The notes under the pieces: generated by a model
The model's input: the letters and a program-made list of their open reading frames with translations, nothing else
Told to the model about the DNA's origin: nothing
Database searches by the model: none
Position numbers and translations under genes: made by a program
In this document: piece after piece, positions 144 through 59,238 of the stretch
Layout of the letters: every line of letters starts with the position of its first letter
Numbering within the stretch: the first letter of the stretch is position 1
Assembly (NCBI GenBank): GCA_964016885.1
Contig: OZ024740.1
Coordinates: 24,242,001 to 24,306,000, forward strand
DNA length: 64,000 bases
Source of the DNA: Eledone cirrhosa
Lineage: Eukaryota
Direction of reading: 5' to 3'

Positions 144-335
144 CATATATATATACATATATATATATACGGGGTAACAAATAATAGTTATATCCAGTCC
201 CCTTAGGTGTAGTCCAGTTATGGTATTCCGGGTAGTGGATGATATCAACGCTAGGCTTGGTTTGACTCAACAAGGCGTATTCATAGTGATGTTGCGAGTA
301 TACTGTAATTCCTATGTTGTAAACACATTCTCGCA

Positions 336-443
336 TGCTCCGAAGAACTGACTGGTTATAATTTCGTATTGGCGATCGAGTAACGTGAAAACAAGCGAAT
401 AGCGATCTCTAGACCTACCAGTTCAGAGAAACAATTGTCAGCA
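336..443 (+). ncRNA. Type I hammerhead ribozyme with ~81-nt stem II (U4C core variant)
   Basis: TGCT-CCGAAGA-[ACTGACTGGT...ACCAGTTCAGA]-GAAA-CAATTG-TC|AGCA. Stem I TGCT/AGCA, palindromic stem III ACAATTGT. Lies in a ~330 bp unique island between (TA)n tracts. Confidence 0.7.
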
Positions 444-498
444 ATGGGATTAAAAACATTTTTTGTATTGCAAACCATGTCAATCTTCTTACCTGATT

Positions 499-5688: not shown

Positions 5689-5880
5689 GTATAGGATTAT
5701 CCAAGATGTAGTAATGGTTAATTACTACACTGGATATGGTTGACGTACGGTAAGAGGTTACTCTACGAGTTATGGAAGAATTGTTCAAGAAACTTAGTTC
5801 CTGATCCTTCAGTATTCCGGAGTGTATATAAAGAATGAATAATAACAGGTTGACATCATAAAAAAGTAATTTATTCCGTG

Positions 5881-5992
5881 TGCTTACAAGTGTTTCCACG
5901 GTGGTACTGCAGCCTAGTTCCGCTACGTGCAAATTCACAAGTACTTGCAGAACTCGAATATCCAATGCTGTGACCACTGTTTCCTCAGAGCA
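5881..5992 (-). ncRNA. Type I HHR with ~85-nt extended stem II
   Basis: TGCT-CTGAGGA-[ACAGTGGT..CAGC..AGTTCTGC...GCGGAACT..GCTG..ACCACCGT]-GAAA-CACTTG-TA|AGCA. Sense to the ORF. Confidence 0.8.
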
Positions 5993-6487
5993 GTATGGTA
6001 AATGTACAATGTAAATACCCTTAAGTGGGGTTGTTGGGGAAGATAGAGTAGAACAGGAAGAGAGAAAAGTAGGGAAGAGGGAGAGAGAAAGAAAGATATG
6101 CAGGGGTTGGAGAAGTAGGAGAGAGTGGCTTGTAGATATCTTAATCAAAATGTTATGGTAGGGGTTTTATTATACTGGTTACTTTTGGAGAGATGCGTTG
6201 ATAGTTAAGGTCGGAATTATTTATTGCCCCAGAGGGCAGGTTCATAGATGTTGAGAGGGAGGTAGGTCAAAGGTGAGAGAGAGAGAGTGTAATGGATGTA
6301 GAGAGAGATATAGGTAGAGAGGGGACAGATAAAGTATGTGTGGTGAGTGAACTTTTGGTTTTGTAGTAGTAATCTAGGAATTGCACTGAGTTACCATGTA
6401 TAGTGATAAGCAGTGTATTGTCTTGTAGTGTGGGGGGAAGAGAAGGTTGTTAGCTAGAAAGGGGTGTTATAGTTACGGGTTTGAATG

Positions 6488-7686
6488 TTAAGTTATTTTA
6501 TAGTGAGAGAATTTAGTTTTTAGTTTGTGGTTGCAGTATAATGATCGTTCAATTCTATCGTTAAGTAGTTTGTTTTTGGATTTTAATATGTAAAATAGCT
6601 CAAGGTTACATAACCTGCAGTACTTCAATCCACTCCGATATGCACTTGCGCTGGAAAGTATATCCCATTTTAAGGTGAACTGTTGGTTGTGTTCACGGAG
6701 TTGCCAGGTCTTGTTGGCGAGCGTGGTCACAAAACGGTGATTCGGATGTTTGATTGAGAATCGATGACGGTACCAGCGAGATTTAAACGATGTGGTGGTA
6801 GATCCGATATAATACCATTTCTGGTCGTTCGATTCAACCGTGCATTGGTAAACAATGTTGGACTTTAGGCATTCATTCTGCAATGGACATCTTTCAGGTA
6901 GATGGCAGTTACATTCTTTGTTGTGGGTAGCGGGTATACCATGGATAGTTTGTGATAGCGGTACAGGTGGGTTGTGTAATACCCGTCTCCCATTTAGTGG
7001 TTGGGAGGCAGATATTGCGTTCTGCCCATCTGTTACTAAAATGTTTTGTTTTGTAGAGTTGTTTAATTGCCTTAAGTTAAGTTTTTTTATGTATGCTTCA
7101 AGGTTTGGTGCCGTGGAGTATGATAGTCTAATAGTTTTAGTGTTCAGAATTTTGCTGTATTTATGGGAACTAGGGAAGTGTTTGTTGATTAATTTAAAGA
7201 ATGAAAGAGATAGTTTTGTACTAATCGAGGCATTAAAAATAGGATTGTACCAGATATACTTTCTACAACGTGATTTATTTGGTGGTGATCTTCTATTATT
7301 AGTATGTCTGGTAGTACTGTGTGTGTGTGCTTGTGTTTTAGTCCCCCGGTTACGTATACCTTGATTTCGTGTAGAGCTATGTGTGTTGTGGAAATTCCTA
7401 TCGATGTATTCTATTGTATCCCGGTGGTCAGCATTCCTTAATGCATTATTGTAGTATTCAGCATGTTCACTAAAAATATCAGAGTTAGACGATAGGCGAG
7501 AGATTCTAAGAGAAATACTCCGGGGAACTGATTTGATCATGGAGAGTGGGTGGTTAGAGTTAAAGTTAATATACGTAAGGTTCTCATTTACCTTGTGGAA
7601 GGGTCGTATCTGTCCGGTATTTAAATTAAGAGTTACGTCCAGAAAGTTTACTACTTTAAGATTGTATTCGTATGTTATTTTGTATT
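6488..7686 (-). pseudogene. Naiad-type PLE RT thumb plus GIY-YIG, 5'-truncated
   Basis: VVNFLDVTL...IWYNP...CNCHLPERCPLQNEC..NIVY..YYIGST..FKSRW..CRLCNLE..LLND..CNH. Confidence 0.9.
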
Positions 7687-7780
7687 CGTAGCGGAACTAG
7701 GCTGCAGTACCACCGTGGAAACACTTGTAAGCACACGGAATAAATTACCTTTTTATGATGTCTACCTGTTATTATTCATT

Positions 7781-7864
<84 letters not shown>

Positions 7865-9945: not shown

Positions 9946-11735
9946 CCTGTTGAGGGTATTTGCCACAAGTGACGTCAGTGAGATCCCCCTGTAGTTGTTG
10001 GTGTTAGAGAGATCTCCCTTCTTTGGCACTGGGACGATGTTACTGATCCTCCACTGATTCGGGGCAACTCCTTTCTCCAGTGCCTTGTTACAGAACCCCA
10101 GGATGATATCATCAAAATTACACCTCTTCATCACCTCTGATGCCACTCCATTTCTCCATGTGCCTTGCCCTCCTTGATCCTCTTCTTGGCTCTCTGAAGT
10201 TCCTCTCTGGTGAAAGGCTCTGTCTCAATATCCAGTTCTTCAAACAGCCGCCTGATCTCCCCAGTGATCTGGCCTGTGGAGGGTGGCTCTCATAGTAGGG
10301 TCCTAAAATGGTCTAGCCATTTCCTCTTCCTATCCTCGGGCCCCGTTCCCTGGATCTGACTCGAACGTCTTCTCTTCCTCCCTGTGATCTCGTTGATGAT
10401 CATCCAGCTCTCCTTACATCCAGATCTGTCAACAGCTCTCTTCACACTTCTGATCATCTCTATCAGTGCCTCCTCTCTGGCCTCAGTGTAAGCGGTACAG
10501 GGTTCTTCCCTCATTACCACCACAGTCTCCACCCTCTGCTCCGTAGGATCAGCATAGTATTGGTCCTTGGCAGCTTTCAGGTGTTCTCTGGCTGCACACA
10601 CTTTTGGGTTTGCAGAGCTGACGTGCTTCCTTTTGTTCTTTTTCCTCGGCACCAGGAAGGCCTTTGATTCTGTGGACCGTCAATGCCTGATGAATATCTT
10701 ACAGGCTTATGGAATCCCCAAGAAGATAGTGGACCTGATATCACTGCTCTACACCAACACCAAAGCCCAAGTCATTACATCTGATGGGATTCAGAGTTCT
10801 TTGAGATACTGGCTGGAGTGCTCCAGGGAGATACATTGGCTCCCTATCTTTTTATCATCGTAGTGGACTATTGGATTCGCCTTGCACTTGAGAAACACCA
10901 GGACTCTGGCTTTACTGTAGCACCGGCTCAGAGCAGGAGAGTTAAGGCGAAAAAAGTATCAGATGCTGAACTTGCCGACGACATAGTTTTGGTGACAAAT
11001 ACAGTGAAGGAGGTAGAGGATTTGATGCAGGAGGTTGAGATTGTGTCGATGAGTGTGGGGCTGAGAATGAATGAGACTAAAACAAAATATCTGGTAGAGA
11101 ATGTTGAGAAGCCAGAGGGGATCACTTATGTAGGCGGGAAGCCGCTAGAATTGGTTGAGGGCTTCCTGTATTTGGGAGCAAAGATTGGGAATACGGAGGA
11201 TGATGTGGTTGAGAGGAAGAGAAAAGCCTGGGCAGCGTGCCACAGCTTGAGATCGGTGTGGAAGTCGGACCTTCGTAAAAACCTGAAAATCCACCTCTTC
11301 ATTGCTGTAGTGGAGTCTGTGCTGCTGTACGGGTCTGAGACATGGACACTGACCAAGAAACTCACTCAGATGGTGGATGGGTGCTACACGAGAATGCTGA
11401 GGATGGCTCTGAACATTAATCAGTATACACTGAGGATGAAAAACTCAGAGCTGTATGGGATCCTCCCAAAAGTCAGCTCAAATGTGACACAGAGGAGACT
11501 GAGGTTTGCTGTACATGCTCACCGACATCCAGAGTTGACATTGCACTCAGTGCTCCTGTGGGAGCCCCTACATGGACACACTGGAAGAGGAAGACCAAGG
11601 TTAACGTATGTTGATGCCCTAAGGACAGATACTGGTCTGTTGGAGACGAAGGACATGGCAGCGATAATGAGGGACAGAGACCGCTGGAGAGAACTCGTCC
11701 ATGGATCTCTGGAATTCTACCCGCCCTAGAATAGA
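9944..11735 (+). mobile_element. RTE-clade LINE, 5'-truncated and 5'-inverted
   Basis: + strand 10653-11729 gives KAFDSV..GVLQGDTLAPYLF..LADDI..LLYGSETWTL..GRGRP (one frameshift). - strand 10652-9944 gives the upstream part ending IVPVPKKGD..NYRGISLTS. (TA)n flanks. Confidence 0.9.
10653..11729 (+). pseudogene. RTE reverse transcriptase C-terminal part
   Basis: RT motifs from KAFD onward and RTE-like C-terminus, with a frameshift near 10790-10810. Confidence 0.88.
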
Positions 11736-22654: not shown

Positions 22655-22801
22655 TATTTTCCGTTGTGTTGTAATATAAATATTACACACAGTAGATTAT
22701 CAGCTCACGTAGAGTTTGCTCGACGGTTCCAGTTGTAGTTCCAAAAGTAATCCGGAGAAAAATAGAAAGATTTGAATGGATACAGTTTAGTTGAAAGGAA
22801 T

Positions 22802-22922
22802 TTATTGACACGTGTTTCTATAACAGTTACATAACCTGAAAACAGCTGCTATCTACAAAGTTTTAGTTATGCAGACATTCAATATTTCAATGTTATTATT
22901 TACTGTCATTTCATCAGAATAA
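22802..22922 (-). ncRNA. Type I HHR with 92-nt branched stem II (inverted copy)
   Basis: Reverse complement of 24548-24668. Confidence 0.85.
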
Positions 22923-23200
22923 TATTACTGAGGACCTATTTAGTTTTTATAGAGAATATTAGGAGGGAGGGGTGAAGTTGTTAGAAGAATAGTTGAAGGA
23001 GTGGTTTTTCGATAGCAGTGAGAATTCTTGGTGGCAGTGAGTAATTAGATTCCCATCTGTTGTTTTGACATTTTTTATAGAATATATTATTGGTTATTTT
23101 TCTAAATCTATAGAAGGATTAGAGATAGTAAAGATATGCGTGGTTGGTTTTGTGTTTGCACTTAATTAACATTCAGACTTAAATTTTTCTTTCAAGTGTA

Positions 23201-23659
23201 CTCCAGAGAAAACCCAACGTACACAACTATAACTGCACCTATCCTGACAACTGCCCCCTCGGCAATAACTGCCTGGAAAAAAATATTATTTATAAGTGTT
23301 CCATTAAATCCGGAGGCAACGAGTGGTATTACGTGGGATCAACGGCAACATCGTTTAAATCTCGATTGTATAGGCATTCTTACTCAATAAAACACCAGAG
23401 CCAAAGAAATGTAACAACTTTAGCAGAAAAAGCTTGGACGCTCAGGGATAGCGATCAAAAGTTTACCCTAAAATGGGAGAAATTAGCTAAAACCCAAAGC
23501 TTTTCCAGGAGCCAAAATTTCTGCAAATTGTGTAATCTTGAGATTTATTACATAATCACACACAAGAAGAAACTGCTGAATAACAGAATTGAACGAACAT
23601 TATTCTGCCGTCACAGAACTAAAACCCTTTTTTCCCACTACAAGCCGAATATTACATAA
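23201..23659 (+). pseudogene. Naiad-type GIY-YIG endonuclease fragment
   Basis: YNCTYPDNCPLGNNCLEKNIIYKC..WYYVGST..FKSRL..CKLCNLE..LLNNRIE..CRH. Confidence 0.9.
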
Positions 23660-24547: not shown

Positions 24548-24668
24548 TTATTCTGATGAAATGACAGTAAATAATAACATTGAAATATTGAATGTCTGCA
24601 TAACTAAAACTTTGTAGATAGCAGCTGTTTTCAGGTTATGTAACTGTTATAGAAACACGTGTCAATAA
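24548..24668 (+). ncRNA. Type I HHR with 92-nt branched stem II
   Basis: TTATT-CTGATGA-[ATGACAGT..ACATT/AATGT..GCATAAC/GTTATGT..ACTGTTAT]-GAAA-CACGTG-TC|AATAA. Confidence 0.85.
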
Positions 24669-45533: not shown

Positions 45534-45614
<81 letters not shown>

Positions 45615-45658
45615 TAAACAAATAATGAATAAACAATTCCTTATATTAAACATAAAAA

Positions 45659-45813
45659 TTCATTATTTAACGATCGTTTCTAGGGTATATATGTGTTATA
45701 ATTGGTATGCATATTCAACAGATCTATGTACAAAATTATACAAAATTATACAAATTATCAAGATTAAATATACATACCTAACACATATATACGCCGTCTT
45801 CAGAAATAATGAA
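45659..45813 (-). ncRNA. Type I HHR with 116-nt rod-like stem II (3' pLTR)
   Basis: Reverse complement of 57467-57621. Confidence 0.88.
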
Positions 45814-46638
45814 GTATATTTATTGATAATAACAACAATTCAAAATATCAGTTCAAAATTGACCAATGAAAACACAAAAGGGTTAAAAGCAGTTCGGTGT
45901 GTGTATATACATGTAAAATCCTTACACATATTTTACAAAAATGTGTGTATAATTTGTATACGCATACTAAAAAGATGGATGCAAACACAAAATTTCAAGG
46001 TTAATATCTCTGTAAGCTTAATGCGCTGATAAGATGCGCATTGATACTTATGGAGTCAAGCATATAAATATATTTTTTCATACTCACACATATCAGTATA
46101 ATCACACATACATGCGCGTATATGCATAAATATACACATAACCACGAACATACAAACACACACACTCCCCCACTCACATTTATATATGTGGATATAAAAT
46201 CATAAGCACATAGAAATTAAATCACTCACATAAAACACTGGCACACACATTTCAAGATCAAGATACAGAAATTAGGTGGGAGGGGGGGAGGGGTCAGTAT
46301 TCAATTGTCTGAGCAGACTGCCTAATATAAATGTATCTATAAATTAAGAAAAATAAAAAAAATAAAACAATAAAATATAATAACTATAATATAATATATA
46401 TACACATACAGATATATAAACACACATACATACATGTACGCACACATAGAGATATTTACGCATACACCCATACACACATACATATACAGTCATACACACA
46501 CATACACTTACACGAACATACACATACACATATAAAAAGATATATATATACACACACACACACGCGCAACACATACACACATACACATATATATAAAAAA
46601 AATAGATAATAAAGATATATATCCCTATATATATAAAT

Positions 46639-46687
<49 letters not shown>

Positions 46688-47010
46688 TATATACATACAT
46701 ATACATATACATACACATACATCTAAATATACATACACATACATACACACATACATGTACATACATGTACATACATATGCACCTACTTATACTCATATAT
46801 ATAAATACATACGCTTCCATAAATGTGTATATACATAAAAAACAATACAACCTCACCAAACTCAGACATACAAATAAAGATAATAATAAAAAATAATAAT
46901 AAAAAGGCATATGTATATACATACACACACGCATTAATAGATATATATATATATATATACACATACATACACATATATATATACATACACACACACATAT
47001 ATACACACAC

Positions 47011-47051
<41 letters not shown>

Positions 47052-47061
47052 CACATAGACT

Positions 47062-47098
<37 letters not shown>

Positions 47099-47547
47099 AT
47101 ATATATCCACACACACATACCACCATAAAAACACATACAAACACCCACATGTATATATATTTATATATATATATATCCATATACACACACGTACATATAT
47201 ATACATATATATACATACATATATATATATACACACACACACATAAAAAACAGACATGCACATATATATATATATATATATATATTTTATTACTCTTATA
47301 TATACACATATTATATATACATACACAACCTCACTTATACACATATACACATAAGTTATATTATAATAATAAAGAATAATATACATATATATATATACAT
47401 ATACATATATATATATGTATATATATACATACATACATACACATACATACATACACATAAACATATACATACATAAATACATACATACTAATAAAGACAT
47501 ATATTCACACATAGACACCTATATATATATATATATATATATATATC

Positions 47548-47598
<51 letters not shown>

Positions 47599-48748
47599 AC
47601 ACACACACACACACACAGACACACATACACACTCACATATATATATATATATATATGTGTATGTGTGTGTGCGCACATACACATATATACACACACACAT
47701 ACAAACACACACAAACACATACATATGCATACGTGCACACACACACACATATATCACATAGATACGAAGATAAACATATAAATAGAGAGACATACATATA
47801 TATACACAACACACATACACATACATACATACACGCATATACATATACATACATATATACACATATATATATTCATATATATACAAGCATACACATACAT
47901 ACACATATATACACATACATACACATATACATACAACACATTCACATACACACACATATATAATGCATATATATACATATATATACATACATATGTATGT
48001 ACAATCATATATACACACACAATCTTACATTCATATTTGCATGCTCATATATGTATTTCTATATTTAGATATAAATACCCAAACCTATATAGACACCTAC
48101 CTACATATATATTCATACATAGACGCTTACAAATACAGATGATAATAGTATGGGGGAAAGGGGGGGTTTGGAGAAGGGGATCAAAGTAAATATATGTTTC
48201 AAGAAACATATAATATTTTCCGTATCTTAATTCAATGTATGTTCTTACATACTTTCAGTGCTAGGAAATACGAAATCTATGCATCTCAAAATAAATAAGT
48301 ATACCATTAATCATATGCTAACTAAACCAAAGATAGCCAACATATTGATTTCTAAGGTGTAAATTAGTTAGGTTTATAATATTTGAAGCAGAATTTTGAA
48401 GTCAAACAGTAGTAGATTATTAATTACAGTATAACTAAATTAAAGTTAATAACGTTATGGTATCAATATTAGGAGATGAATTTAGTAATAGGGAAAAGAA
48501 ACCCAAATAAAAATAAAATAAAATAAAGTATTACATCGGTAGTAGCATATAAATTATATGTTAACTAAATTAAAAATTATATATTTATTACAATAGTATA
48601 CGTTAATTAGTATATGTTAATTAGGTATACAATACATAAAGCAGATATTGTATTTCATCAATAGCATAATATAATTATATGCAAATAGAAATCAAAATTA
48701 ATACGCATACATATACATATACATACACACACACATATACATACATAT

Positions 48749-48789
<41 letters not shown>

Positions 48790-49324
48790 CACATATACAC
48801 ATACATACATACATACAGATACACATACACAACACACACATATACATACACATATACATATACATATCTTTTTCAAAAAATTGCACAGAATATATTAACT
48901 AGGTATATATCCAAAACACATCCCATTCTATGATTACATGACATTCTGCAATTCGTCTGTATAAGGATACTAATTTTAAGCAAATTAAAATTAAAATTTT
49001 TAGGTTGATTAAAACTAAAACCAAATAATAAATATATTTCCAAAATGTATATTAATTATGTCTATAATACTAAAAATTATTTCTCCGTCATTGGAAACAT
49101 GATATTATTTTGCTATATTTTATCTGTAAAAGAATTATAATAAAAGGTTTAAATAAATTAAAATTAATCTATAAATTAAATTACTAAGTATATATTAGTA
49201 ATATTTAAAGGTTTTTCACAATTTATGATTACATAATATTTTCTCATCTGTAATAAAATATTAATTAAATTAAATTTATAGGTTAACTAACATTTAAATT
49301 AAATTAATTTCTAGAATAATGTTA

Positions 49325-51766
49325 TTAATTAGGTTTATAATATTTAAATGTTTTTTTTAGTTTATGATTACACGATATAATTAATTCCTGTCGTTTATTT
49401 AATAAGATATCCTTAGACTTCATTATTTCAAATAGTTCTTGGGAACATAATCTACATTCCTTTCTATTATTTTGATAAGGGGTGGCTCTTTTGAGCACAC
49501 TCCAGGTCAAATCATATTTTATATTCTTATTTTTATAACTATTAATTTTTTCTGCTAGAGATGTTGTATTAGCCAGTGCGGCATTTTTAAAACTATGCTT
49601 GTGGGTATTAAACCTTGTCTTAAAATTGTTAGAGGTAGCTCCTATATATGAGCAAATAGAATCTTTAGTTTTAACATTACATTTATAGACTATGTTGTTA
49701 ACAAGACAATTCCCTTTTAATGGGCAGTTTGTTTTGTTTCTACAGTTACATCCTTTCGTTAATTCTGTATTTGAGGAGATATTATTGTTAATTTGATGTA
49801 CTGGTGGTATACTTATGGTTTTCTTACATTTATATGCATTATATGCACTTATATTTTGTTTTATGTTATTTGTTGTAGAGTATGAGAATTTAACTGTAGA
49901 CCTATTTAAGATTTGATGGTATTTGTGGTTTGGCGGGAAGTTTTTCTCAAGGATATAAAAAAATTTTTTAGCAATATTATCCTTAACTTGTAAATTAAAA
50001 GGAGCATTATACCAAGTAACTCGTCTATTACGGTTTCTATGTTGTTTATTATTTTTATTATTTTTATAGGTTGTATCATGATTTTTACTAGGAGGATTAA
50101 TGTTAATGATCTCACCACAACTATTTTTAGTTATATTTGTAGATTTAGGTGTTTTATCTTTTTTATTAGGAGTTTTATTATTAATATTTATTATAGTTGT
50201 ATGATGAGTAGTTTTTTGAGGGTTACTATACTTTATATTAGAAGATTTAGTATTTTGGGGTATATTGTGGGTGGCATTTAGGTGTGTACTTTTCATTTGG
50301 TGTTTGTTGGTAATATTATGCTGTATGCTTTCAGTATTTTTAGTAGAAGGTATATACTCTAATCTATTTTTGTGGCCACTTCTATCTAGAGCTTCATTAT
50401 AAAAGGTCGCATTTTTATCAAATACATCTTGGTTAGAAGAAAGGTTAGAAATTCTAAGTGATATATTATATGCAAGGTTTTTAAGGATAGATTTAGGGTG
50501 ATTAGATTGTGAGTGTATGTAATGTAAGTTTTGGTTAGGTTTATGGTAAGGTTGGTATATACCCGTAGCTAAATCTAAAGTTATATCTAGGAAATTTACT
50601 ACTTTACTTGTTTTTTCAAAAGTAATATTAAGATTATAATAGTCTTTAAGGAAAGTTCTAATATGTTTTTTGTTTTTTTCGATTTCTGAAAGGCTAAGGT
50701 TGTTAGAAAGAAGAAGACAGTCATCACGATATAAACCACCTTTGAGGTGGGGAAAAGAGGCATTTATGTTGAAAAGGAGAAAGAGGCCCACAAGATCAGT
50801 AATTTGGGCGGAATCGCTTGAACCCATAGTAATATCAAAAAGATTACTGTATGTGTTTCTGGTCCAGTATTCATTCTGAAATTCAATAAGTGTTAGTCTA
50901 GCATGTGTAATAATGTTAATGTCATCCGAAGTTAAATTAGATCTATTTTTAGCAAATATTAATGCTTTGTTCAGGAGTATAGGTGATATAGAAGAATAGT
51001 AATTATCTATATCAAATTGTAGGAAAGAAGCAGAAGATTTACACCTAATATTTTTAAACCAGTTAATTACCTGGGAGGTGTTTTCCCAGAGTGGTAAAAT
51101 AACGTGTTTTCTTATTTGTGGGATGACTCTATCTAAAATTTTTTTGCTAATTATTCCAATATCTGATTTGGAGGGACATATAAGTCTAATAGAAGGATTA
51201 GAGTTAAAGTTAGATTTGTGATCTTTCAGGTTGAAGTGTGGTCTTTTCAATGCCAAAGGTTCAGTTCTATCTTCAATGTTTAGTTTTTTTACTATGTTGT
51301 GTGTTTTGTTGTTGATGTTGGTGAGTGACACATTATTAGATTTTTTATAATTTTTTCTGAGTTCTTTATATATGAACTCATTATAATGTTCAATATCCAT
51401 ATGATACAAGTTACCAGTTTTGTCCGAGTGGACATGGATTTTTTTAGACTTTTTTAGGTCCAATAGGGTAGAATCAAGGTCCTTTTGAAAGACGGATTTA
51501 TACTTTTTAAATTTGAGGTGTTTAATTAAATTAAAAAGGTCTTTCTCGAAGTCTTCAAGTAAAAAGTTGTGTGGTGGATTCTTGTAAGTATTGAAATCAT
51601 ACATATATTTCCGATCTGCTTTTTTAGATTTCCTATCGAAGTGGTAGGCTCTCCATCTAACCCTTCTGATAAAATTATTAGTTTTCTGAATCATAAGGAG
51701 TAAGAAGTCGTCCTTAGAAGGTATTGGTATGTTTTTTAAGGAGGTTCCTAAATATTGTTTTTCCAT
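49325..51766 (-). CDS. Penelope-like (Naiad-type) reverse transcriptase / GIY-YIG endonuclease, ~813 aa
   Basis: Uninterrupted ORF from the first ATG: SLKNIPIP, DKTGN, LKDHK..P.IRLI, FDIDNYY, MGS.DSA, LYRDD, VNFLD, WYNAPF, CNCRNKTNCPLKGNC, NIVY..YIG, RF..H, CRLC..E, LLNKR.E..CNH. Confidence 0.95.
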   Translation of the reverse strand: MEKQYLGTSLKNIPIPSKDDFLLLMIQKTNNFIRRVRWRAYHFDRKSKKADRKYMYDFNTYKNPPHNFLLEDFEKDLFNLIKHLKFKKYKSVFQKDLDSTLLDLKKSKKIHVHSDKTGNLYHMDIEHYNEFIYKELRKNYKKSNNVSLTNINNKTHNIVKKLNIEDRTEPLALKRPHFNLKDHKSNFNSNPSIRLICPSKSDIGIISKKILDRVIPQIRKHVILPLWENTSQVINWFKNIRCKSSASFLQFDIDNYYSSISPILLNKALIFAKNRSNLTSDDINIITHARLTLIEFQNEYWTRNTYSNLFDITMGSSDSAQITDLVGLFLLFNINASFPHLKGGLYRDDCLLLSNNLSLSEIEKNKKHIRTFLKDYYNLNITFEKTSKVVNFLDITLDLATGIYQPYHKPNQNLHYIHSQSNHPKSILKNLAYNISLRISNLSSNQDVFDKNATFYNEALDRSGHKNRLEYIPSTKNTESIQHNITNKHQMKSTHLNATHNIPQNTKSSNIKYSNPQKTTHHTTIININNKTPNKKDKTPKSTNITKNSCGEIININPPSKNHDTTYKNNKNNKQHRNRNRRVTWYNAPFNLQVKDNIAKKFFYILEKNFPPNHKYHQILNRSTVKFSYSTTNNIKQNISAYNAYKCKKTISIPPVHQINNNISSNTELTKGCNCRNKTNCPLKGNCLVNNIVYKCNVKTKDSICSYIGATSNNFKTRFNTHKHSFKNAALANTTSLAEKINSYKNKNIKYDLTWSVLKRATPYQNNRKECRLCSQELFEIMKSKDILLNKRQELIISCNHKLKKTFKYYKPN

Positions 51767-52108
51767 TGTGATATGGATGATGGACAATTGAAAGAGCTCA
51801 ACTAAATGTATATGGGTTTACAAAATCATACATATATATATGTTTATACATAAATATAAAATTAATACACACATACAGTACAAAAATACGAATATTTCCG
51901 TGAAAATAGGAGCAAAATTATGTAGATAAATCTACCAAGAGTTTACGGTAGTGTCCAATCCGTATGAAGAACTCAATGTATTCCGGATATCATGGAAAGA
52001 AGAGATGCAATGAAAATCCACTTTCGGTGAAAGACAAACGGTATACAGAGTCAAGATAAAATATTAAACAAATAATGAATAAACAATTCCTTATATTAAA
52101 CATAAAAA

Positions 52109-52263
52109 TTCATTATTTAACGATCGTTTCTAGGGTATATATGTGTTATAATTGGTATGCATATTCAACAGATCTATGTACAAAATTATACAAAATTATA
52201 CAAATTATCAAGATTAAATATACATACCTAACACATATATACGCCGTCTTCAGAAATAATGAA
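52109..52263 (-). ncRNA. Type I HHR with 116-nt stem II (5' pLTR)
   Basis: Same sequence as 45659-45813, upstream of the ORF. Confidence 0.88.
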
Positions 52264-52624
52264 GTATATTTATTGATAATAACAACAATTCAAAATATCA
52301 GTTCAAAATTGACCAATGAAAACACAAAGGGTTAAAAGCAGTTCGGTGTGTGTATATACATGTAAAATCCTTACACATATTTTACAAAAATGTGTGTATA
52401 ATTTGTATACGCATACTAAAAAGATGGATGCAAACACAAAATTTCAAGGTTAATATCTCTGTAAGCTTAATGCGCTGATAAGATGCGCATTGATACTTAT
52501 GGAGTCAAGCATATAAATATATTTTTTCATACTCACACATATCAGTATAATCACACATACATGCGCGTATATGCATAAATATACACATAACCACGAACAT
52601 ACAAACACACACACTCCCCCACTC

Positions 52625-54317
52625 AAAAACCTTGCATATAATATATCACTTAGAATTTCTAACCTTTCTTCTAACCAAGATGTATTTGATAAAAATGCGA
52701 CCTTTTATAATGAAGCTCTAGATAGAAGTGGCCACAAAAATAGATTAGAGTATATACCTTCTACTAAAAATACTGAAAGCATACAGCATAATATTACCAA
52801 CAAACACCAAATGAAAAGTACACACCTAAATGCCACCCACAATATACCCCAAAATACTAAATCTTCTAATATAAAGTATAGTAACCCTCAAAAAACTACT
52901 CATCATACAACTATAATAAATATTAATAATAAAACTCCTAATAAAAAAGATAAAACACCTAAATCTACAAATATAACTAAAAATAGTTGTGGTGAGATCA
53001 TTAACATTAATCCTCCTAGTAAAAATCATGATACAACCTATAAAAATAATAAAAATAATAAACAACATAGAAACCGTAATAGACGAGTTACTTGGTATAA
53101 TGCTCCTTTTAATTTACAAGTTAAGGATAATATTGCTAAAAAATTTTTTTATATCCTTGAGAAAAACTTCCCGCCAAACCACAAATACCATCAAATCTTA
53201 AATAGGTCTACAGTTAAATTCTCATACTCTACAACAAATAACATAAAACAAAATATAAGTGCATATAATGCATATAAATGTAAGAAAACCATAAGTATAC
53301 CACCAGTACATCAAATTAACAATAATATCTCCTCAAATACAGAATTAACGAAAGGATGTAACTGTAGAAACAAAACAAACTGCCCATTAAAAGGGAATTG
53401 TCTTGTTAACAACATAGTCTATAAATGTAATGTTAAAACTAAAGATTCTATTTGCTCATATATAGGAGCTACCTCTAACAATTTTAAGACAAGGTTTAAT
53501 ACCCACAAGCATAGTTTTAAAAATGCCGCACTGGCTAATACAACATCTCTAGCAGAAAAAATTAATAGTTATAAAAATAAGAATATAAAATATGATTTGA
53601 CCTGGAGTGTGCTCAAAAGAGCCACCCCTTATCAAAATAATAGAAAGGAATGTAGATTATGTTCCCAAGAACTATTTGAAATAATGAAGTCTAAGGATAT
53701 CTTATTAAATAAACGACAGGAATTAATTATATCGTGTAATCATAAACTAAAAAAAACATTTAAATATTATAAACCTAATTAATAACATTATTCTAGAAAT
53801 TAATTTAATTTAAATGTTAGTTAACCTATAAATTTAATTTAATTAATATTTTATTACAGATGAGAAAATATTATGTAATCATAAATTGTGAAAAACCTTT
53901 AAATATTACTAATATATACTTAGTAATTTAATTTATAGATTAATTTTAATTTATTTAAACCTTTTATTATAATTCTTTTACAGATAAAATATAGCAAAAT
54001 AATATCATGTTTCCAATGACGGAGAAATAATTTTTAGTATTATAGACATAATTAATATACATTTTGGAAATATATTTATTATTTGGTTTTAGTTTTAATC
54101 AACCTAAAAATTTTAATTTTAATTTGCTTAAAATTAGTATCCTTATACAGACGAATTGCAGAATGTCATGTAATCATAGAATGGGATGTGTTTTGGATAT
54201 ATACCTAGTTAATATATTCTGTGCAATTTTTTGAAAAAGATATGTATATGTATATGTGTATGTATATGTGTGTGTTGTGTATGTGTATCTGTATGTATGT
54301 ATGTATGTGTATATGTG

Positions 54318-54358
<41 letters not shown>

Positions 54359-55508
54359 ATATGTATGTATATGTGTGTGTGTATGTATATGTATATGTAT
54401 GCGTATTAATTTTGATTTCTATTTGCATATAATTATATTATGCTATTGATGAAATACAATATCTGCTTTATGTATTGTATACCTAATTAACATATACTAA
54501 TTAACGTATACTATTGTAATAAATATATAATTTTTAATTTAGTTAACATATAATTTATATGCTACTACCGATGTAATACTTTATTTTATTTTATTTTTAT
54601 TTGGGTTTCTTTTCCCTATTACTAAATTCATCTCCTAATATTGATACCATAACGTTATTAACTTTAATTTAGTTATACTGTAATTAATAATCTACTACTG
54701 TTTGACTTCAAAATTCTGCTTCAAATATTATAAACCTAACTAATTTACACCTTAGAAATCAATATGTTGGCTATCTTTGGTTTAGTTAGCATATGATTAA
54801 TGGTATACTTATTTATTTTGAGATGCATAGATTTCGTATTTCCTAGCACTGAAAGTATGTAAGAACATACATTGAATTAAGATACGGAAAATATTATATG
54901 TTTCTTGAAACATATATTTACTTTGATCCCCTTCTCCAAACCCCCCCTTTCCCCCATACTATTATCATCTGTATTTGTAAGCGTCTATGTATGAATATAT
55001 ATGTAGGTAGGTGTCTATATAGGTTTGGGTATTTATATCTAAATATAGAAATACATATATGAGCATGCAAATATGAATGTAAGATTGTGTGTGTATATAT
55101 GATTGTACATACATATGTATGTATATATATGTATATATATGCATTATATATGTGTGTGTATGTGAATGTGTTGTATGTATATGTGTATGTATGTGTATAT
55201 ATGTGTATGTATGTGTATGCTTGTATATATATGAATATATATATGTGTATATATGTATGTATATGTATATGCGTGTATGTATGTATGTGTATGTGTGTTG
55301 TGTATATATATGTATGTCTCTCTATTTATATGTTTATCTTCGTATCTATGTGATATATGTGTGTGTGTGTGCACGTATGCATATGTATGTGTTTGTGTGT
55401 GTTTGTATGTGTGTGTGTATATATGTGTATGTGCGCACACACACATACACATATATATATATATATATATGTGAGTGTGTATGTGTGTCTGTGTGTGTGT
55501 GTGTGTGT

Positions 55509-55591
<83 letters not shown>

Positions 55592-56010
55592 TGTCTATGT
55601 GTGAATATATGTCTTTATTAGTATGTATGTATTTATGTATGTATATGTTTATGTGTATGTATGTATGTGTATGTATGTATGTATATATATACATATATAT
55701 ATATGTATATGTATATATATATATGTATATTATTCTTTATTATTATAATATAACTTATGTGTATATGTGTATAAGTGAGGTTGTGTATGTATATATAATA
55801 TGTGTATATATAAGAGTAATAAAATATATATATATATATATATATATGTGCATGTCTGTTTTTTATGTGTGTGTGTGTATATATATATATGTATGTATAT
55901 ATATGTATATATATGTACGTGTGTGTATATGGATATATATATATATAAATATATATACATGTGGGTGTTTGTATGTGTTTTTATGGTGGTATGTGTGTGT
56001 GGATATATAT

Positions 56011-56047
<37 letters not shown>

Positions 56048-56057
56048 AGTCTATGTG

Positions 56058-56098
<41 letters not shown>

Positions 56099-56443
56099 GT
56101 GTGTGTATATATGTGTGTGTGTATGTATATATATATGTGTATGTATGTGTATATATATATATATATCTCTATTAATGCGTGTGTGTATGTATATACATAT
56201 GCCTTTTTATTATTATTTTTTATTATTATCTTTATTTGTATGTCTGAGTTTGGTGAGGTTGTATTGTTTTTTATGTATATACACATTTATGGAAGCGTAT
56301 GTATTTATATATATGAGTATAAGTAGGTGCATATGTATGTATGATTATATATCTAATTCTATGTATGAAGGTACATCTATATATATATGTATATATACGC
56401 GTGTATGTAAGTAGTGTGTGTATGTATCTATATGTCTATGTGA

Positions 56444-56491
<48 letters not shown>

Positions 56492-56592
56492 CGATGTGCG
56501 TATATGTATGTACATGTATGTACATGTATGTGTGTATGTATGTGTATGTATATTTAGATGTATGTGTATGTATATGTATATGTATGTATATA

Positions 56593-56641
<49 letters not shown>

Positions 56642-57808
56642 ATTTATATATATAGGGATATATATCTTTATTATCTATTTTTTTTATATATATGTGTATG
56701 TGTGTATGTGTTGCGCGTGTGTGTGTGTGTATATATATATCTTTTTATATGTGTATGTGTATGTTCGTGTAAGTGTATGTGTGTGTATGACTGTATATGT
56801 ATGTGTGTATGGGTGTATGCGTAAATATCTCTATGTGTGCGTACATGTATGTATGTGTGTTTATATATCTGTATGTGTATATATATTATATTATAGTTAT
56901 TATATTTTATTGTTTTATTTTTTTTATTTTTCTTAATTTATAGATACATTTATATTAGGCAGTCTGCTCAGACAATTGAATACTGACCCCTCCCCCCCCT
57001 CCCACCTAATTTCTGTATCTTGATCTTGAAATGTGTGTGCCAGTGTTTTATGTGAGTGATTTAATTTCTATGTGCTTATGATTTTATATCCACATATATA
57101 AATGTGAGTGGGGGAGTGTGTGTGTTTGTATGTTCGTGGTTATGTGTATATTTATGCATATACGCGCATGTATGTGTGATTATACTGATATGTGTGAGTA
57201 TGAAAAAATATATTTATATGCTTGACTCCATAAGTATCAATGCGCATCTTATCAGCGCATTAAGCTTACAGAGATATTAACCTTGAAATTTTGTGTTTGC
57301 ATCCATCTTTTTAGTATGCGTATACAAATTATACACACATTTTTGTAAAATATGTGTAAGGATTTTACATGTATATACACACACCGAACTGCTTTTAACC
57401 CTTTGTGTTTTCATTGGTCAATTTTGAACTGATATTTTGAATTGTTGTTATTATCAATAAATATACTTCATTATTTCTGAAGACGGCGTATATATGTGTT
57501 AGGTATGTATATTTAATCTTGATAATTTGTATAATTTTGTATAATTTTGTACATAGATCTGTTGAATATGCATACCAATTATAACACATATATACCCTAG
57601 AAACGATCGTTAAATAATGAATTTTTATGTTTAATATAAGGAATTGTTTATTCATTATTTGTTTAATATTTTATCTTGACTCTGTATACCGTTTGTCTTT
57701 CACCGAAAGTGGATTTTCATTGCATCTCTTCTTTCCATGATATCCGGAATACATTGAGTTCTTCATACGGATTGGACACTACCGTAAACTCTTGGTAGAT
57801 TTATCTAC
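52625..57808 (+). mobile_element. Inverted 5'-truncated copy of the same Naiad
   Basis: 52625-53782 encodes the identical C-terminal ~385 aa. It mirrors 45607-50482 apart from a 171-bp indel, and extends to the equivalent of 51920. Confidence 0.95.
57467..57621 (+). ncRNA. Type I HHR with 116-nt rod-like stem II
   Basis: TTCATTATTT-CTGAAGA-[..GTATATATGTGTTA GGTATGTATATTTAA...TTGAATATGCATACC..TAACACATATATAC..]-GAAA-CGATCG-TT|AAATAATGAA. 10-bp stem I, palindromic stem III. Confidence 0.88.
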
Positions 57809-57888
57809 ATATATATATATATATATATATATGATAAAGAACACAAGAGTGTCTACAACATCAAAATATATATATATATATTTTTTCA

Positions 57889-59198: not shown

Positions 59199-59238
59199 CC
59201 GAGCTGAAGATCCGCGAAGGTGAAACAATTGTTCTCGG
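59199..59238 (+). ncRNA. Minimal type I HHR
   Basis: CCGAG-CTGAAGA-TCC-GCGAA-GGT-GAAA-CAATTG-TT|CTCGG. Confidence 0.82.

Follow-up and report, generated by a model that had tools for sequence, protein, structure and literature searches.

The hammerhead motif at 24548-24668, with 92 nt between the two halves of its core, raises three related questions: (i) what shape this long stem II arm takes; (ii) which kind of element carries it, and whether the arm was inherited or arose more than once; and (iii) what the arm might do. The window, by which we mean the whole 64-kb stretch of DNA that was analysed, is AT-rich eukaryotic DNA full of microsatellites. Its relevant features are collected in the table, and families are named below by the length of their arms.

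Features of the hammerhead, its host element and related elements in the window
Feature	Position	Strand	Remark
Stem I 5' strand, UUAUU	24548-24552	+	all A-U pairs, weak
Core first half, CUGAUGA	24553-24559	+	
Stem II arm, 92 nt	24560-24651	+	best model an unbranched rod with internal loops
Stem II base helix, 5' strand	24561-24568	+	partner 24643-24650; pair P 0.90-1.00
Candidate 68-nt GT-AG intron	24567-24634	+	hypothesis only; excision leaves 9-bp helix and 4-nt loop
Middle helix, 5' strand with bulged A24579	24574-24585	+	partner 24629-24639; bulge kept in sister family
TATT motif	24586-24589	+	common to long-armed families
Apical helix (24593-24600 / 24613-24620) and 12-nt terminal loop	24593-24620	+	exact register uncertain
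Common 11-nt motif ending TAG, then C	24611-24622	+	
Core second half GAAACACGUGUC	24652-24663	+	helix III palindrome 24655-24662; GUC triplet; cut after C24663
Stem I 3' strand, AAUAA	24664-24668	+	overlaps AATAAA hexamer
3' pseudo-LTR segment	24269-24708	+	ends in (TA)n 45 nt beyond cleavage site
Inverted, 100% identical pseudo-LTR copy	22762-23201	-	second hammerhead copy at 22922-22802
107-nt tail, on inverted copy only	22655-22761	-	ends in (TA)n; continuous with pseudo-LTR in run X8 contig
5'-truncated ORF end: linker remnant and Hydra-type GIY-YIG endonuclease	23202-23659	+	RT absent; stop at 23659
Sister Hydra family hammerhead (5988), homologous 85-nt arm	5878-5995	-	500 nt 3' of ORF (6488-7696, -)
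Fourth long-armed hammerhead (340), 81-nt arm	333-446	+	U4C core change; no adjacent ORF
116-nt-armed hammerhead (57477) of full-length 830-aa Hydra family	57467-57621	+	
Further hammerhead copies of 830-aa family	cores at 52253 and 45803	-	
Short-armed (11 nt) hammerhead, more distant Hydra-like family	59199-59238	+	internal comparison
31-nt-armed family	13064, 16166; 12060	+; -	
36-nt-armed family	38717	+	
26-nt-armed family	62329	+	
TCCGGAWTAC	57743; 22756, 5821, 51987	+; -	
Short and long element ends	24708 and 22655; 45606 and 57811; ~7784 and 5684; ~503		

The hammerhead and the shape of its arm

The hammerhead motif is real and lies far above chance. All elements of a type I core are present, namely CUGANGA (24553-24559), GAAA (24652-24655) and an NUH triplet, GUC (24661-24663), with the second half reading GAAAC-ACGU-GUC; the letters first proposed for the core and for a UUAUU/AAUAA stem I, and the 92 nt between the core halves, are confirmed in the sequence. 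The core is closed by helices I, II and III of 5, 8 and 2 bp, helix I being open-ended. The window contains eight motifs whose stem I has at least 5 bp; 150 Markov-resampled windows have 0.02 on average. A hammerhead pattern scan of viral contigs returned 42 loci, none with a stem I, which served as controls: a stem I of at least 4 bp is found in 0 of their 51 pattern matches. In metagenome contigs the scan gave a single match (L043:1284-2708). It falls in a 474-aa ORF, the contig being AT-rich and of bacterial type, and was rejected as chance. Rfam returned no match at the locus with E up to 10, and it also missed the short-armed motif at 59204; across the whole window, the 150 of 410 matches listed include only low-complexity microRNA-type ones.

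The helices differ in strength. Stem I has two compensatory changes relative to the sister family; it is thermodynamically marginal (pair probability about 0.001 in free folding, duplex +0.1 kcal/mol), and nearly the entire depth of sequencing run X8 carries a change that breaks one of its pairs. Helix III is a perfect 8-nt palindrome with a self-duplex of -10.3 kcal/mol. A G10.1-C11.1 pair at the base of helix II is usual in hammerheads, although not universal. Here it is absent, A24560 facing A24651 (A-U in a 7% variant), and many published Hydra rows likewise have a mismatch at this position (PMC8557442). Folded alone, the insert is better than all 500 of its shuffles (z -3.5); the whole 128-nt motif reaches only z -1.6, with 11 of 200 shuffles equally good. 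The proposed base of stem II proved real, and the predicted fold does unite both core halves through this 8-bp helix, which supports the view of a type I hammerhead of a Penelope-like element whose abnormally long stem II still closes the core.

Beyond the base helix, the original prediction had stem II open into a three-way junction. The two sub-hairpins can be drawn, but energy, natural variants and the sister family favour an unbranched rod, and the arm is better modelled as such. The best fold is a rod of -23.3 kcal/mol, and the junction, when filled out, reaches -21.2 kcal/mol; its share of the ensemble is about 0.5% at 37 °C and smaller still at 25 and 15 °C, and 993 of 1000 sampled structures have the rod shape. 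All four long-armed families are rod-shaped in their best fold. In stability, the 85- and 81-nt arms do not clearly exceed their shuffles (72/500 and 17/500 as good), and 187 of 1000 structures sampled for the 85-nt arm are branched.

Natural variants were taken from contigs of four runs aligned to the inverted copy, and are unphased. Eight substitution sites in the arm were counted, leaving out 12 A>G or T>C rows seen only in run X6 and two X6-only rows at 24623, a site that would break a pair in both rod and junction. None of the eight breaks a rod pair, and seven fall at sites unpaired in the rod although 70% of the rod is paired; several add rod pairs, and three common variants lie in the apical terminal loop. 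By the same count, four of the eight break the filled junction, two of them in the originally drawn sub-hairpin helices.

Run X6 merits a separate remark. Over 22657-23201, 17 of its 23 private changes are A>G or T>C, on both strands, in contigs with 15-24 changes, and the deep run X3, of the same study and a different sample, shows none of them. These changes look like A-to-I hyper-editing of inverted pseudo-LTR duplexes, including adenosines of the core and stem I. We rejected them as support for the rod, because they occur on both strands and also outside the arm, as the inverted repeat predicts.

The comparison with the sister family points the same way. In a core-anchored alignment of the two sequences, with one register set by hand and a structure based on one of the two, the sister keeps 20 of the 25 rod pairs, seven of them through compensation: four in the base helix, which is common to rod and junction, and three in the distal rod (13/17 kept). 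The middle helix keeps 8 of the 9 pairs compared, three being compensatory, and the apical helix 5 of 8. Controls with slid registers are 33-47% paired, against 87% in the unslid register; an alignment of the two inserts only shifts the 5' register. The base and middle helices are well supported.

It is improbable that loop II is instead branched, whether as the drawn junction or as another one, possibly in a switch with the rod. The drawn junction lies only 2.1 kcal/mol above the rod, but its two sub-hairpin helices keep 6 of 12 pairs in the sister family with no compensatory change, and a variant fixed in run X8 disrupts the middle of the second. RNAalifold, given the same two sequences, returns a different, branched consensus of a short apical hairpin and a second one that joins the TAGC motif to the 3' strand; the latter has 5/5 pairs in both families and one compensatory change, but does not form in two X8 fragments read by eye.

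The host element and the ancestry of the long arm

The element had been labelled a Naiad, and this label is not borne out. As described in PMC8557442, the Hydra clade of Penelope-like elements is defined by a C-terminal endonuclease, RWK and DKT in the RT, a CxxC..E..N..CxH motif and a CxCx5C linker, and a hammerhead is reported for all its members; in Naiads the endonuclease is N-terminal, and a CxC domain before the RT, DKA and CCHH are present. Between the inverted 440-bp repeats lie a microsatellite-rich 3' UTR and the truncated ORF end, in which the endonuclease is C-terminal and carries the Hydra-clade motifs; it is 56% identical to that of the sister family and 38% identical to that of an intact 830-aa ORF (49325-51817). 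In the latter the RT comes first, and RWR, DKT, CxCx5C and CxxC..E..N..CxH are all present. C98, C101, E104, N117, C126 and H128 are invariant across four families of the window, with no CCHH. The linker reads Y-x-C-x5-C in the remnant, its first Cys replaced, and is intact in both closest window relatives. Among 144 long homologues, RW[KR] occurs in 127, DKT in 122 and CxCx5C in 126, RW[KR] and DKT being read on relatives only, as the 24548 copy has lost its RT. We reject a Naiad identity on the C-terminal endonuclease, the leading RT, DKT and the lack of CCHH (RT features from relatives); by its protein motifs, the element is a Hydra-clade Penelope-like element. It is therefore no surprise to find a hammerhead, as it would have been in a clade described as having none: in a Hydra element the hammerhead is expected as such, and the size of its arm is not.

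Neither the 158-aa remnant nor the 830-aa ORF matches a Pfam family, and GIY-YIG falls below the cut-off for a 402-aa ORF; protein-based locus searches for relatives found none in viral contigs, prokaryote genome contigs or phage records. The element is flanked by (TA)n at both ends, and loose ends in TA occur at 22762 in all four runs. A contig of run X6 links the antisense pseudo-LTR at 22954 to the endonuclease at 23500-23527, and this second inversion junction ties pseudo-LTR and endonuclease together. The 24548 copy is dead; in a read-through RNA of it, the motif would be buried in a perfect 440-bp inverted-repeat duplex.

Several observations concern the neighbouring elements. A near-complete Hydra element at 45606-57811 has two hammerheads on the same strand, separated by 6.45 kb. 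It also includes the intact 830-aa ORF, with a possible acceptor about 33 nt before the ATG, a 3' UTR of 3.5 kb rich in microsatellites, and an inverted copy of 5 kb. Where a family has two copies, one of its ends is short, 45-63 nt beyond the cut, and the other long, at 150-200 nt. The 10-nt TCCGGAWTAC occurs four times in the window, each time 3' of a hammerhead and within the long tail of one of the three ORF-bearing long-armed families. The sister family has an AATAAA hexamer 8 nt past the cut; its inverted copy (7700-7784) starts inside stem II, and the palindrome of helix III has the same mismatch in both copies. Inverted or tandem repeats also contain three other hammerhead families, all with a palindromic helix III and with arms of 31, 36 and 26 nt, and 10785-11729 is a fragment of an unrelated non-LTR reverse transcriptase (Pfam RVT_1).

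The original prediction also held that stem II had expanded independently. Alignment with the sister arm, positioned motifs in the 81-nt arm and the grouping of the endonucleases favour inheritance instead, and leave independence as a question for the 116-nt family alone. When the 92- and 85-nt arms are aligned, 23 of 3000 shuffles score as high locally and 15 of 3000 globally. The 81-nt family was detected with a covariance model of these two families; its pairwise alignments with the other arms are not significant (163 to 1079 of 2000 shuffles), and its core is damaged (U4C). All three arms have GT at positions 8-9 in common, as well as a TATT with TAG 33-35 nt further along and a YAG that precedes GAAA by 15-17 nt. 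Only 6 of 20000 shuffles of the 81-nt arm reproduce all three features, an optimistic figure, because the windows were set after that arm had been seen. The six window occurrences of the 11-nt TAG motif all lie inside long-armed hammerheads, from which the motif was itself defined post hoc. An endonuclease tree of 146 columns and 36 rows pairs the 92- and 85-nt families as sisters (100/99) and adds the 116-nt family to them (92/78), leaving the 11-nt family outside on a long branch; a smaller quick tree of 20 rows gives the branch of the three only 57.

That the 92- and 116-nt arms arose independently is a possibility that we consider unlikely. The insertion at 57467 had been called unrelated, and this stands as far as alignment goes: pairwise scores are not significant (164 to 630 of 3000 shuffles, 164 being the figure for this pair), the two-family covariance model misses the 116-nt arm with E up to 5, and the arm has 0 of the 3 positioned features; the branch joining the three families is not firmly supported in the trees. 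At the apical helix, however, the 3' strands of the two arms share 10 of 11 motif letters in the same pairing register, with one compensatory change. Moreover, the distance from TATT to TAG is 44 in the 116-nt arm against 33-35 in the others, the excess matching one 10-nt tandem unit, and trees that unite the short-armed family with one or the other long-armed group are rejected (p 0.042 and 0.021), although long branches are involved. It is likely, judging from these shared features, that the long arm was inherited in three families, and plausible that this extends to the 116-nt family; one origin is more economical.

Possible functions of the long arm

The reading that we favour, with some confidence, is of a type I hammerhead motif in a Hydra-clade pseudo-LTR, with stem II in one sub-lineage an inherited, unbranched rod of 80-120 nt, and with cleavage that would be dimeric and probably protein-assisted. 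A monomer would be nearly inactive, with a helix III of 2 bp, a weak stem I and no G10.1-C11.1 pair. In a tandem transcript, such as the layout of the 830-aa element would give (cores at 52253 and 45803, same strand), the palindromes of two copies could pair into an 8-bp helix III, allowing slow cleavage after GUC. Metazoan Penelope hammerheads with a palindromic helix III are indeed described as cleaving poorly as monomers and weakly as dimers (PMC4209133; PMC6765202). Cleavage would probably be aided by the element's own protein: an Anolis motif is reported to cleave only with the element protein, uncleaved RNA being the template and the assisted cleavage dispensable for insertion (PMC11167929). 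By analogy, the predicted self-cleavage most likely requires dimers and protein help.

Because the integrated ends lie beyond the cut (+45, +63, +152 and +200), cleavage would seem not to make the template but to trim the RNA, and its role may be in trimming or related to translation; cleavage-dependent translation has been shown for viral type I motifs (PMC13725137). The base helix would close the core. The weakest step concerns the distal rod, which, with its conserved bulged A and TATT/TAG motifs, may be a selected cis-element. The long arm is probably under selection, and we suggest, tentatively, that the distal rod is a putative docking site for the RT-endonuclease protein of the element.

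There are two other ways to regard the arm. It is possible, and in our view little less likely than a docking site, that only the closing helix matters and that the long arm was inherited as a neutral expansion whose pairing is maintained to spare the core: loop II would make no tertiary contact and would tolerate any self-pairing insert. The arms of hammerheads in this one window measure 11, 26, 31, 36, 81, 85, 92 and 116 nt, the longest containing a three-unit tandem repeat; the usual contacts between loops I and II are described as missing in Penelope hammerheads; and a plant element in PMC8557442 File S2 already has a spacer of 54 nt. Against neutrality, turnover of base-helix pairs between families has left the positioned motifs and the bulged A in place, and the length stays at 81-92 nt in three families. 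Were the arm neutral, this would be an ordinary Hydra hammerhead with a long loop.

The other scenario, which we regard as doubtful, is that loop II owes its extra length to a short spliceosomal intron, which the transposing RNA retains. Removal of a GT..AG segment would give a compact 9-bp stem II, and the unspliced rod would mask both splice sites and thus favour retention. GT at positions 8-9 and YAG 15-17 nt before GAAA occur in three of the four window families, and removal of 68, 61 and 58 nt leaves 23-24 nt with hairpins of 7-9 bp, the helix II size reported for metazoan Penelope hammerheads (PMC4209133). The tandem repeat of the 116-nt family lies within a near-consensus 54-nt GT-AG segment of its own (57503-57556). 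Two loose-end fragments of diverged families in run X8 have YYCAG|GT 17 and 18 nt before the core (by eye, reverse strand), an arrangement found in 0 of the 51 viral controls, and variants at 24632 preserve YAG. Penelope itself retains a 75-nt pseudo-LTR intron with conserved splice sites (PMC2377424), which in D. virilis ends at helix I (PMC4209133). However, conserved base pairs account for the same letters, and the shuffle figure for the 81-nt family is, as noted, optimistic. The donors are poor, with no +5 G in three families, and the sister family is without a pyrimidine tract. In the 24548 arm, judged by eye against the consensus, the acceptor is good and no branch point is clear; the donor is weak, and weaker still in a variant that makes up about 8% of the depth in X3. 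No spliced joint appears in any of the four runs, one of which is RNA-like, though contigs show presence and not absence; their contigs and reads on the inverted copy give neither joints nor clustered ends, and a search of sequencing runs listed no RNA run as carrying the locus. If a Hydra sub-lineage did carry an intron in loop II, which we doubt to the same degree, the rod-folded unspliced RNA would transpose and the spliced RNA would be a compact hammerhead; splicing would then decide which RNA is cut, translated or copied.

The preferred reading of an inherited rod has consequences of its own. What hammerheads and retained introns do in Penelope-like elements is described as an open question (PMC8557442, PMC11167929), and a conserved 80-120-nt arm is a natural deletable domain for probing the binding partners of the pseudo-LTR RNA and any coupling between splicing and self-cleavage. 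Real motifs are missed by descriptor searches whose spacers are set to 7-17 nt (or to 35-50 nt in the case of half cores), and published absences in other clades therefore deserve a rescan. The long-loop design would, for example, escape the short-spacer searches behind the statement that Naiads have no hammerhead.

Comparison with known systems

An arm or stem II of 80-120 nt, or an intron in loop II, is not described for Penelope-element hammerheads in the parts of the literature covered, which include PMC3088659, PMC10085705, PMC6155905, PMC7229834 and bioRxiv 10.64898/2026.07.22.740005, and whose supplements may bear on the point. The nearest precedents come from other settings. The discontinuous Clec2 hammerhead has a long insert of several hundred nt, but is a domesticated motif of mammalian mRNA; the hammerhead of PLE-X1_sMoe has a spacer of 54 nt, but belongs to a single plant family and has a shorter loop than those here. 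At 54 nt, the latter spacer is the longest of any clade in File S2 of PMC8557442, counted by eye.

With Naiads the element shares a Penelope-like nature, (TA)n targets and an inverted pseudo-LTR structure, and some Naiads have split half cores 35-50 nt apart (PMC8557442). The order of domains and the motifs set them apart: here RT first, DKT and no CCHH, and in Naiads an N-terminal endonuclease, DKA and CCHH. The metazoan Penelope minimal hammerheads (PMC4209133) resemble this one in a stem I of 4-5 bp, a helix II of 7-8 bp with an unpaired base at its 5' end, and a palindromic helix III predicted to act in dimers; unlike them, the motif here has no G10.1-C11.1 pair and a helix II about 75 nt longer. 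Any intron here would lie inside loop II, unlike that of D. virilis Penelope, which ends at helix I.

PAc, an Anolis element of the Poseidon clade (PMC11167929), offers a functional parallel, in that its integrated ends also lie 3' of the cleavage site, as if uncleaved RNA were the template. It belongs to another clade, however, and its stem II is compact and contains the start codon, whereas the ORF of the full-length relative here begins 353 nt after the cut.

The closest likeness is to the Hydra clade itself. Its hammerheads differ from those here in core spacing (12-26 nt in the 26 rows of PMC8557442 File S2, counted by eye, against 81-116 nt), and the 3' UTRs here, with 500-3522 nt to the motif, are longer than in the described Hydra elements; tails here measure 107-137 nt, against 30-40 nt described for Penelope-like elements. 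In other respects the two agree. As in File S2, the hammerhead is of type I, lies near the 3' end in the pseudo-LTR and has a short, palindrome-like helix III, and as in the elements of PMC8557442 it accompanies a C-terminal GIY-YIG endonuclease with CxCx5C, intact in the relatives, and CxxC/CxH, (TA)n insertion sites and an inverted, 5'-truncated copy.
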